Assembly: GCA_046563655.1 (NCBI GenBank)
Contig: CM102285.1
Coordinates: 11,098,001-11,162,000 of the forward strand
DNA: 64,000 nucleotides
Reading direction: 5' to 3'
Source of the DNA: Yuukianura sp. NJ FZ-2021
Taxonomy: Eukaryota
In this document: positions 13,801 to 16,121 of the stretch, piece by piece
How the letters are laid out: each line of letters starts with the position of its first letter
Numbering within the stretch: position 1 is the first letter of the stretch
Made by a program: the position numbers and the translations under genes
The notes under the pieces: model-generated
What the model was told of the DNA's origin: nothing
What the model saw: the letters and a program-made list of their open reading frames with translations, nothing else
Database searches by the model: none

Positions 13801-16121
13801 TTGGACACGGATGATTTGCCAAAGAAAAAACTGCCTGCTCTCTACCGTGCTCCGACAGCAGAAATGATTGCCTACCTCGACTTCAGGTTGTTTGTTATTA
13901 CATCAAGGGAAAATATTTTTTGTGATATTGACCAAGCTGTTTTTTTTTTTGTTTTATGTAGCGTTTCTACGACTGGGATGCTCGCTGGTAAGTTGGACCG
14001 TGTTTTATTAACCGGAAAGTTACGACGGTACTGCAAATATACGATGTCTAACTTTTTTATGCTCATTATCAGGGATCAAAATGTCACATTCTGCTGTGAC
14101 ATCACTTTGTCGGTCAATGAAGTTGGCTTGTGAACTGTACCCTTCACGTCATGTCGCTCTCTGCTTGGATCCATACTGTGGACTTGGGTAAAAAAAGAAT
14201 ACTTTCCTAACATTTTTTTTAAACTTTTGATTCTCCATTTTCAGGTGGGAAGCTTTAAAGTTTATTATTTGTTTTTCTTTTACAGGTTTGCATTGTGGTG
14301 CCTCAGCAGGTGAGGAAATATTCAAAAGTTTACCTGATTTTGAATGGCCCAGAGTCCTATATGAACTTTCTTTTCTTTTTGCAGCGTGTACTCCGGACAT
14401 CATTCAATATTGATTCCCCCCTCAGAAGTTGAAGTGAACCCAGCTCTTTGGTTAAGTGCAGTGAGTCAGTACAAAGTGAGAGATACGTTCTGTTCTTACG
14501 GAGTCATGGAGCTCTGTACCAAGGGATTAGGAAGCTCTGTAAACCTTCTCAAACAAAGGAACGTCAATTTGGCTTGTGTCCGAACTTGCGTTGTGGTGGC
14601 TGAAGAAAGGCCGCGAATTGCTCTCTCCAATAGTTTCTCAAAACTGTTTTCTGCCCTTGGACTCTCGCCGCGTGCCGTTTCGACGTCTTTTGGATGTCGA
14701 GTCAATGTTGCCATTTGTTTGCAGGTAAGAACCAGCAAATAGGCGTTGGAAATCTGTTGAGGGAAAGTGGTCGAATGGTCAGAGTTTGTCACGCTGTGAG
14801 TAGGGTTGTGGGTTCGAGCCCTGAGGAGGGAGTGACAAGACTGCATTTTCCTGTCAGAAATGATGATCAAGTATACCGCCCCAGTCTGAATTCTATGACT
14901 GAGTGGTTGATTTGTCCCTGATCTGTATTTTTGGTACTTTTGTAGTAGATTTTCGTTTTTGGTGAGCACACATTCTAAATGTTATGCTGTTTTGCAGGGA
15001 GCGTCTAGTCCAGAACCATCCACTGTTTATGTGGATCTGCGAGCCCTCCGAAATGACCGTGTCACTTTGGTGGAGAGAGGTAGTCCACACAGTCTTTGCG
15101 TTATGGAGTCTGGAAAGCTTTTACCGGGCTGTAAAGGTAAATCCAGGTTTTCAATTTTTTTTTTTTGGAAATCAAAATTTGTAATTAATTTTTTTCGTAG
15201 TAATAATTGCCAACCCTGAGACGAAAGGACAATGCGGTGACTCTCATTTGGGAGAGGTACGGGTTTGCGGAGATTGAATTTGCTAATTTATGAATTATTG
15301 CAAAATTGTGTATATGTTTTAATCTGATATAGATTTGGATACAATCTCCTCATAATGCATCTGGATACTTTACGATTTTTGGAGATGAGAGTAGCTATGC
15401 GGATCACTTCAACTCACGCCTTGTGACCGGAAATACTGGAGAATTATATGCAAGGACAGGTTACCTGGGATTTTTACGAAGAACTGAAAACGTTCAAGCT
15501 GACGGAGGTATAATTCAACCAAATTCAATTCGCAAAATTCATAATAAAGATTGATGGACTGAATCCAATTTTTTATTTGTAGAGCTTCATGATGCTGTTT
15601 TTGTGGTGGGAGCCTTGGATGAAACGATCATGTTGCGAGGGATGCGCTATCATCCAATTGATGTAAGAGATGTAGAACATTATTACGAGAATTAGTCTCG
15701 TTTCTGGTAAGAAATGCAAGTTTTTTTTACCTCGCTTGATATTGTAGGTGGAGAATAGCATTCTTCGATGTCATAAGAAGATTTGTGAATGGTACAGTTT
15801 TTTCGATTCTCTCTTTCTTATTTCAAAGTTGGTGCAATGCTAACTCTCTGGTTTTGCTGTCTTTTCAGTGCTGTTTTTACATGGACAAACTTATTGGTAG
15901 TAGTAGTTGAATTAGAAGGAAACGAAAGTGAAGCCCTGGACGTTGTTCCGCTCGTTACAAATTGTGTCCTGGAAGACCATTTCCTTTTAGTTGGTGTAGT
16001 GTGCTGTGTCGATCCTGGAGTAGTTCCAATTAACTCACGCGGTGAAAAGCAGCGAATGCATCTTCGGGATGGATTTTTGGCAGATCAGTTGGATCCAATC
16101 TTTGTCGCGTACAACATGTAA
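1872..16121 (+). CDS. DIP2: Disco-interacting protein 2 (two AMP-binding/fatty acyl-AMP ligase-like domains); multi-exon, 5' end lies upstream of the window
   Basis: About 30 GT-AG exons join in frame (e.g. 1872-2112, 4248-4528, 5075-5200, 5813-6018, 6429-6555, 7001-7203, 8671-8905, 13153-13399, 14385-14724, 15869-16121). Recognisable DIP2 peptides: QPPDVT, RWKVSAKIQQLLNTLKRPKRRPL, GLPRNLEAAVQRYG, DRVALVYPNNDP, C-terminal PINSRGEKQRMHLRDGFLADQLDPIFVAYNM*. Confidence 0.96.
10033..10623 (+). mobile_element. Non-autonomous Helentron-associated element (HINE/DINE-1-like) in a DIP2 intron
   Basis: 5' hairpin AAGTAGC-GAA-GCTACTT (10039-10055); (CTGT)n microsatellite at ~10070-10085; 3' subterminal inverted copy CTTCGCTACTT (10585-10595) followed by stem-loop CGGTT-TAC-AACCG (10604-10616); T-rich flanks and no TSD; internal tandem repeats. 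Ends are approximate. Confidence 0.75.
10404..10528. repeat. 25-bp minisatellite (5 units, GAGAAACCCATCTCCRYTCCCCCGG) inside the HINE-like element
   Basis: Units start at 10404, 10429, 10454, 10479 and 10504 and diverge progressively. A ~70-bp block is also duplicated with a 127-bp period (10211 and 10338). Confidence 0.9.
14761..14832 (+). promoter_or_regulatory. Degenerate tRNA-like RNA polymerase III internal promoter (A box + B box) immediately upstream of the snoRNA
   Basis: A box TGGTCGAATGG at 14768-14778 and B box GGTTCGAGCCC at 14811-14821, with tRNA-like spacing counting from G14761. The acceptor stem does not pair, so this is not a functional tRNA. Confidence 0.7.
14855..14925 (+). 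ncRNA. SNORD31: Box C/D snoRNA of the U31/SNORD31 (yeast snR67) family, guiding 2'-O-methylation of the LSU rRNA P-loop G (E. coli G2251 equivalent)
   Basis: Terminal stem CAGA/TCTG; C box ATGATGA 14860-14866; guide TACCGCCCCAGT 14874-14885, complementary to conserved 28S ACUGGGGCGGUA; D' box CTGA 14886-14889; C'-like ATGACTGA 14895-14902; D box CTGA 14918-14921. The D'+5 rule lands on the second G of UGGGG. Confidence 0.88.

Follow-up and report, generated by a model that had tools for sequence, protein, structure and literature searches.

The 64,000-nt window analysed here is a stretch of forward-strand DNA from Yuukianura sp. NJ FZ-2021 (GenBank assembly GCA_046563655.1, contig CM102285.1, positions 11,098,001 to 11,162,000; coordinates below are those of the window). 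Its plus strand carries part of a DIP2 gene, in which a GT...AG intron of 273 nt (14725..14997, plus strand; GT at 14725-6, AG at 14996-7) is flanked by two DIP2 exons and holds a small nucleolar RNA (snoRNA) of the box C/D class, from the U31/SNORD31 family. Upstream of the snoRNA, within the same intron, lies a leader with A-box-like and B-box elements of the transfer RNA (tRNA) type, and just downstream of it a short T tract. We consider here whether this arrangement is a leader-type RNA polymerase III (Pol III) snoRNA gene nested in an intron of an RNA polymerase II (Pol II) gene, as was proposed in an original prediction from the DNA letters, whose coordinates for the intron, the boxes, the two T tracts and the snoRNA are all correct.

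The snoRNA (14853..14927, plus strand) matches the Rfam family RF00089 with 49.1 bits, above the gathering score of 40 (E 4e-8), and its predicted identity as SNORD31 is thereby confirmed. SNORD31 is the sole Rfam match in the 64 kb, at the gathering score and at E ≤ 0.5, and the U31 unit is the single C/D candidate of the window. Along the plus strand, the unit is composed of a C box ATGATGA (14860-66), a D' box CTGA (14886-89), a D box CTGA (14918-21) and a 4-bp terminal stem CAGA/TCTG (14855-58/14922-25). The guide TACCGCCCCAGT (14874-85, plus strand) abuts the D' box and is identical to the Rfam consensus. It is predicted to pair with the P-loop of the large ribosomal subunit (LSU), and its target is presumably the G equivalent to E. 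coli G2251. The U31 equivalent of yeast, snR67, is reported to direct the methylation of G2619, which corresponds to E. coli Gm2251 (PMC11121408). Assigned through snR67 and ribosomal RNA sequence, U31 of the DIP2 intron is predicted to guide 2'-O-methylation of the P-loop G, the Gm2251 equivalent; the earlier claim that this guide defines U31/snR67 and this target agrees with Rfam and with what that report says of snR67. In the two orthologous introns described below (loci L043 and L075), the SNORD31 scores are 47.7 and 47.8 bits, and the outermost pair of the terminal stem covaries: L075 has U-A where the other two sequences have C-G (columns 129/200 of the consensus fold). The segment preceding the D box, at 14900-14917 (TGGTTGATTTGTCC), shows partial conservation in both orthologues and might be a second guide.

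The leader contains a B box, GGTTCGAGCCC (14811-14821, plus strand; core GTTCGANNC), that agrees with the consensus at 9/9 positions, and an A-box-like element, TGGTCGAATGG (14768-14778, plus strand), that agrees at 7/9 specified positions of the consensus TRGCNNAGTGG. Note that the A-box scores are relative to this simple consensus. From the start of the A-like element to that of the B box there are 43 nt, the spacing found in tRNA genes; an alternative A-like match at 14761-14771, with 2 mismatches, stands 51 nt from the B box. The snoRNA begins 32 nt past the B box. Between leader and snoRNA lies a tract of four T (T4; 14846-14849, plus strand), and a terminator-like tract of five T (T5; 14928-14932, plus strand) follows 6 nt past the D box. 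The B box alone is not significant: one exact match is found in the window (14811-14821) versus 0.33 expected, and at least one match occurs in 28 of 100 shuffles of the window. An exact B box accompanied by an A box with at most 2 mismatches 30-60 nt upstream was obtained in 6 of 1000 dinucleotide shuffles. The core GTTCGANNC itself occurs 6 times in the window, for 6.3 expected, and none of the other five sites has a C box downstream.

A metagenome scan with a plain U31 pattern returned 97 loci with 101 copies. The same scan for an exact B box followed by U31 gave no match, because the B boxes of the orthologues carry one or two mismatches. Using tblastn with both exons of the window, exactly two of the 97 loci, L043 and L075, were found to be DIP2 loci with U31 in the same intron, and their alignment bears out the junctions of the host intron. 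Four-fold-degenerate sites differ at 54/83 positions between the window and L043, at 15/26 between the window and L075 and at 19/24 between L043 and L075, i.e. 58-79%, which is saturation, and the three sequences are for this reason independent witnesses. L043 and L075 may be two species or two old paralogues. The intron is unalignable among the three except for a few islands, one of which is the B-box core: GTTCGANNC is kept in 3/3, and the distance from the start of the B box to the downstream TGATGA is 50 nt in the window, 42 nt in L043 and 40 nt in L075. The a priori chance of finding this motif, fixed from the window, in the 56-nt span is ~0.0034 per orthologue. The full boxes read GGTTCGATTCT in L043 and AGTTCGATTCT in L075, with variation limited to the two N positions and the outer stem positions, and C61 is retained. 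By inspection, positions 52:62 are G:C, G:T and A:T in the three sequences, and a short T-arm-like helix is kept at the B box.

For the A box, L075 carries TAGCCAACTGG, which agrees at 8/9 positions (1 mismatch) and stands 49 nt before the B box (a priori chance ~0.006). The expectation that the A and B boxes are conserved in relatives thus holds for the B-box core in both orthologues and for the A box in L075, and fails for the A box in L043 (at most 6/9). A further block, AAATCTGTTGAGGGAAAGTG (14750..14770, plus strand), covers the predicted start-site and 5' A-box region and overlaps the A-like match at 14761-14771; it is identical to L075 at 17/21 positions by local alignment, a score reached by 43 of 2000 shuffles, and has no similarity in L043. 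Outside the boxes, the leader is not conserved among the window, L043 and L075, and for this reason selection seems to have acted on a promoter and not on a leader RNA.

The two T tracts are also held in place. Counted from TGATGA, a run of at least five T begins at +67 in the window (T5) and at +68 in both L043 (T9) and L075 (T5), that is, 6-8 nt past the D box. The background was taken from 79 distinct U31 copies, obtained from 102 sequences after removal of 19 that were duplicates or had short flanks and of 4 without a D box: a run of at least five T within 12 nt past the D box is present in 7/79, the DIP2 trio making up 3 of the 7, against 4/76 for the others. The T4 upstream of the snoRNA stands at -15, -15 and -14 from TGATGA, and any T4 in the 25 nt upstream is found in 22/79 copies. 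The original prediction had flagged this T4 as a possible leaky terminator; the tract is indeed there, and in all three sequences it is conserved at the same position.

We searched the leader for a tRNA or another known small RNA. ARAGORN returned 0 tRNA genes in the window, L043 and L075, and over 14700-15000 not even a cut-off of E ≤ 10 brought up a tRNA in Rfam. At the same threshold, no tRNA, vault or other A/B-box small-RNA family matched the leader in any of the three sequences, the sole matches of the window leader being box C/D (archaeal sR) models, some of them overlapping the leader and all far under their gathering scores. Checked by hand, positions 1-7 show no pairing to positions 66-72, and together these tests uphold the earlier statement that the leader is without a pairable acceptor stem. 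The leader is accordingly devoid of the foldable cloverleaf and acceptor stem of a plant-type tRNA-snoRNA dicistron, and a tRNA search of the 97 metagenome U31 loci gave 0 tRNAs. In its A-box region, the leader may bear a likeness to the D arm of tRNAs of the Glu/Gln type. The window leader folds as a panhandle of -27.5 kcal/mol, no better than its shuffles (z -1.53; 17/200 equally stable). Note that the three-way consensus fold of the window, L043 and L075 misaligned the B boxes, and that leader helices derived from it are untrustworthy.

Nor does the leader behave as a repeat. BLAST of the intron against the window revealed no second copy. Contigs from three DNA runs of one sample (X1-X3) and from one run of a second organism (X4, organism B) were aligned to 14200-15400 at 80% likeness. 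In X1-X3, no extra contigs were found over 14733-14855, where the depth is that of a single-copy sequence, and the same method does reveal a pile-up at 15143-15224. The X4 contigs covered 2/30 bins, at a repeat, and gave no orthologue. The dispersed copies, body and tail of a short interspersed element (SINE) are thus not seen: the leader has no tail and the depth is flat. At 80% likeness, this flat depth argues against the leader being the head of a high-copy SINE, a possibility raised with the original prediction. No trace of a young SINE family was thus seen, and copies of great age or very high divergence would escape this test. A decayed SINE or pseudo-tRNA was the explanation initially favoured, and was dropped on the orthologues and the flat depth.

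The 101 metagenome copies and the window were clustered into 53 groups. A GTTCRA motif 15-150 nt upstream is present in every member of two groups only, the DIP2 trio (3/3) and a group of 12 members (12/12). A third group has a lone occurrence (1/5), probably by chance, and none of the remaining 51 groups, one of them also with 12 members, has such a motif in all members; because of these 51 groups, the B-box core is not a general trait of U31 loci. The 12-member group (L001, L003, L004, L013, L035, L042, L069, L073, L080, L082, L087 and L096) sits in an intron of NOP58, as indicated by the Pfam Nop domain (E 2.5e-55) and by 92-93% identity to bdelloid rotifer NOP58. In these introns of ~180-210 nt, GTTCGAAYC (CATGTTCGAAYCT) is located 37-53 nt before TGATGA in 12/12 members. 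Pairwise four-fold divergence in the group ranges from 0.04 to 0.77, and the alignment displays conserved islands amid indel-rich sequence. One such island consists of the 5' splice site followed by TTTAGTTGAAYYG, which agrees with the A-like box of the window at 8/11 positions. The rotifer snoRNA has a 10-bp terminal stem with ATTTTT after it; a run of at least five T starts 0-12 nt past the stem in 8/8 measured members (9-12 nt in 7/8), and an aligned run of at least five T is found in 11/12. No conserved T run was observed in the rotifer alignment between the B-box core and the snoRNA. Overall, the rotifer NOP58 introns are an independent occurrence of U31 behind a B-box-like core. On inspection, every rotifer member also contains a second TTCGAA, TTCAAA or TTCGAG ~10-25 nt from the first, upstream or downstream depending on the member, which could pair with it.

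Taken together, the B box, the less perfect A box at the distance seen in tRNAs, the oligo-T abutting the mature 3' end and the drifting leader of the DIP2 intron look like the mark of a type-2 Pol III promoter of the leader type with its terminator, and unlike that of a leader RNA with a function or of a tRNA or SINE relic evolving neutrally. Several of the features expected of a Pol III snoRNA gene are found here: boxes upstream on the same strand and at tRNA-like spacing, conservation in orthologues, and oligo-T past the 3' end. On balance, and with no great confidence, we think it probable that a selected leader-type Pol III type-2 promoter and a terminator flank a functional intronic U31, and U31 at the DIP2 intron is probably also made on its own by Pol III. 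In the scheme that we infer from the motifs, their geometry and their conservation, TFIIIC would be bound at two sites, the B box (14811-21) and the A-like box (14768-78), the latter being the weaker, and TFIIIB would be positioned upstream, for a Pol III start near 14750-14760. The polymerase would then traverse the ~100-nt leader and the snoRNA and halt at T5 (14928-32), giving a ~175-nt precursor whose leader would be trimmed to the 5' end protected by the small nucleolar ribonucleoprotein (snoRNP). The leader itself would be a tRNA-derived remnant that has lost its cloverleaf and is kept only where the promoter requires it. Release of U31 from the spliced DIP2 intron probably works too, because the snoRNA is intronic on the sense strand, and its distance from the 3' splice site is 71 nt (89 nt in L043 and ~159 nt in L075). 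With the Pol III unit, the supply of U31 would not depend on DIP2 expression.

Several observations weigh against this scheme. The A-like box of the window has 2 mismatches to the consensus, and the best match in L043 agrees at 6/9 positions (3 mismatches), leaving no recognisable A box there. L043 and L075 come from one metagenome source, and the comparison covers only three orthologues. In the rotifers, the T5 is only ~20-45 nt from the 3' splice site and possibly part of the pyrimidine tract, and NOP58 is a typical snoRNA host. A Pol III snoRNA gene would be expected to hold no terminator-strength T run inside its transcript, and T4 stands at -14 or -15 in all three sequences; a simple Pol III model would not predict it. 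In C. elegans, human and mouse, T4 is reported to suffice for Pol III termination, with partial read-through of a reporter (PMC2527325). The T4 can be read in several ways: T5 or longer may be needed in these animals, the tract may be a leaky attenuator, or the leader may be a separate unit of ~90 nt. In addition, splicing-dependent assembly of C/D snoRNPs is reported to favour a position ~50 nt before the branch point (PMC8162545), and because 71 and 89 nt in the window and L043 are near the favoured position, U31 would need no extra promoter. The independent Pol III unit of the original prediction is partly supported: it withstands those of its own refuting conditions that can be put to sequence data, in that there is a SNORD31 match, the leader is not high-copy at 80% likeness and the B-box core is kept (2/2 orthologues); its A box is recovered in 1/2 orthologues, and the conserved T4 is something that it does not account for.

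A first rival is a purely canonical intronic U31, obtained solely when the DIP2 intron is spliced out, debranched and trimmed by exonucleases, in which GTTCGANNC and the T tracts serve otherwise, as a TFIIIC-only site (of the extra TFIIIC, ETC, kind), as the site of another factor or as flanks for snoRNP assembly and end protection. We regard this as unlikely, though well worth weighing. It accommodates the sense-strand position near the favoured distance in 2/3 orthologues (71 and 89 nt; PMC8162545, for the distance that this report describes), the T4 within the would-be Pol III transcript, the missing A box of L043 and the U-rich flanks on either side of the snoRNA. It does not explain why conservation falls precisely on the B-box core and leaves the two free positions of the box to vary, nor the A-like box at tRNA spacing with this core in 2/3 orthologues, the oligo-T that abuts the mature 3' end in 3/3, or the recurrence of a B-box-like core in the independent rotifer NOP58 introns; and in L075 the snoRNA, at ~159 nt from the 3' splice site, is far from the favoured position. 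Less probable still, we would say doubtful, is a leader that forms a separate tRNA-derived Pol III gene of ~90 nt, ending at T4 beside an ordinary intronic snoRNA. The A box, the B box and a T4 16-25 nt past the B-box end do have the geometry of a tRNA gene, T4 is fixed at -14/-15 in all three sequences, and the window leader has its panhandle fold (-27.5 kcal/mol). Such a gene would nevertheless be one whose RNA is not conserved outside the boxes, whose fold is unremarkable (z -1.53, 17/200 shuffles as good) and which matches no tRNA or vault family of Rfam in any of the three sequences at E ≤ 10; at the rotifer loci, no conserved T run separates the core from the downstream T5, and the T5-T9 directly past the snoRNA would be left unexplained.

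Two further explanations were considered. A/B-box pairs that stand alone in animal genomes stem most commonly from tRNA pseudogenes or SINE heads, and a neutral, decaying remnant of either kind, landed by chance upstream of the snoRNA, would agree with the lack of a cloverleaf and with the imperfect A box. We consider it very improbable: a neutral remnant would be unrecognisable because synonymous sites are saturated, whereas the B-box core and the two T tracts have been kept, each at a fixed distance, and no further copies at ≥80% likeness appear in the contigs of the three runs or in the window. A tRNA-headed snoRNA retroposon, for which a mobile transcript of Pol III would have been copied into the DIP2 intron, was the alternative offered by the original prediction, and promoter, payload and oligo-T do form one compact unit. 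The unit is, however, at the orthologous position in three deeply diverged lineages at saturated synonymous divergence, has neither an A-rich tail nor a flanking direct repeat, and is single-copy in the window and in the DNA-run contigs; this origin is, in our view, scarcely credible.

The host gene was compared through its exons. The part of the exon 5' of the host intron (14383..14724, plus strand) translates into a peptide 84-96% identical to arthropod DIP2 proteins, with the springtail Orchesella as the best named match (96% identity), and is also 96% identical in protein to the L043 exon. The exon 3' of the intron (14998..15135, plus strand) encodes a peptide shared with L043 and L075, and its protein identity to L075 is 100% (tblastn). 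Its first 17 residues are identical in both orthologues, as are residues 19-46, residue 18 lying outside both alignments. In L075 (164-404, minus strand), this exon is split by an extra intron between window residues 17 and 19. Among the papers listed by a literature search, none ties DIP2 to a role as snoRNA host. In the next DIP2 intron of the window, the pile-up at 15143-15224, built of contigs from the runs of both organisms with loose ends at 15155-15195, marks a short repeated or low-complexity element. Over 14712-14869 and 15205-15360, two contig forms are present in the DNA runs, one near-identical to the window and the other with 15-18 differences, and with gaps at 15205-15360; they are either very divergent haplotypes or evidence of a second related genome in the sample.

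The U31 pattern was also sought elsewhere. Viral contigs gave 0 matches and contigs of prokaryote genomes 5, none of them informative. L098 and L102, scaffolds of 430 and 570 nt from assemblies labelled as marine Bacteroidota genomes, carry an identical U31-like C/D unit of eukaryote type, and are probably eukaryotic contamination of these assemblies. At L014, L032 and L046, two or three U31 copies are found ~260-320 nt apart, in tandem arrays of other eukaryotes.

A leader-type Pol III snoRNA gene is an already known kind of gene and not a new system, to which U31 of the DIP2 intron would add a case. In C. elegans, the upstream motif UM2, which resembles the A and B boxes, is reported at 47 non-coding RNA (ncRNA) loci, 40 of them snoRNAs, where transcription begins upstream of the mature end, at a distance of ~70 bp, and terminates at an oligo-T; short ncRNA loci of this species are described as often intronic, the intronic ones with an upstream motif being expressed independently of the host gene (PMC2527325). 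The DIP2-intron unit, a candidate predicted from sequence, is similar to these loci in its upstream boxes at tRNA-like spacing, a putative start tens of nt upstream, the oligo-T directly after the snoRNA and the intronic location. It differs in belonging to another phylum, the host being most like springtail DIP2, in a leader of ~100 versus ~70 nt and in the conserved T4 within the leader. According to a review, the snoRNA genes transcribed by Pol III number up to 59 in C. elegans and at least 2 in Drosophila, and yeast has snR52 (PMC7277114). The S. cerevisiae genes SNR52 and RPR1 likewise are described as having A and B boxes in a 5' leader that is removed, and a T-run terminator (PMC2527325, PMC7277114); SNR52, unlike U31 of the DIP2 intron, is a stand-alone gene rather than intronic and guides other sites. 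By the account of the sources cited, the yeast equivalent of U31, snR67, is not the snoRNA made by Pol III (PMC11121408, PMC7277114). In Drosophila, the snoRNAs bound by TRF1/BRF are reported to originate in longer transcripts made by Pol III, some having a B-box-like element (Isogai et al. 2007, as summarised in PMC2527325 and PMC2216035).

The Drosophila genes offer an arthropod precedent for the DIP2-intron unit. With the plant tRNA-snoRNA dicistrons it would have in common a tRNA-type internal promoter driving a downstream snoRNA. In these dicistrons, the upstream unit is a functional tRNA that is released by tRNA processing enzymes, whereas the DIP2-intron leader has neither cloverleaf nor acceptor stem. 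Vertebrate SNORD31, in introns of a non-coding host gene, belongs to the same family, has the same guide and is likewise intronic on the sense strand; its copies are released from Pol II host introns and are not known to have an A/B-box leader. Among the papers listed by a literature search, none treats Pol III and snoRNAs together in springtails or bdelloids.

The wider reading of these data joins both occurrences: U31 would be dual-mode in at least two protostome phyla, in springtail-like hexapods within DIP2 and in bdelloids within NOP58, with a tRNA-derived leader that lacks a cloverleaf kept for hundreds of millions of years solely as a Pol III promoter in a Pol II intron, the supply of this universally conserved guide for P-loop methylation uncoupled from the host gene, and the position-fixed T4 of the hexapods acting as a leaky attenuator that would set the share of Pol III transcription reaching the snoRNA. 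We offer it as a tentative proposal that, taken whole, we lean against. The questions that the DIP2 intron addresses are how far Pol III-driven snoRNA genes have spread in animals and whether they coexist with intronic processing, and it is a clean comparative case for both, in that only promoter-like and terminator-like motifs survive around the snoRNA at saturation. If the Pol III reading is true, snoRNA genes of the leader type would extend to two more animal groups, and they would have a signature usable in annotation, namely a B-box core 40-50 nt before the C box and an oligo-T past the D box. The DIP2 intron would then also be a tractable system for the use of Pol III units nested in Pol II introns.

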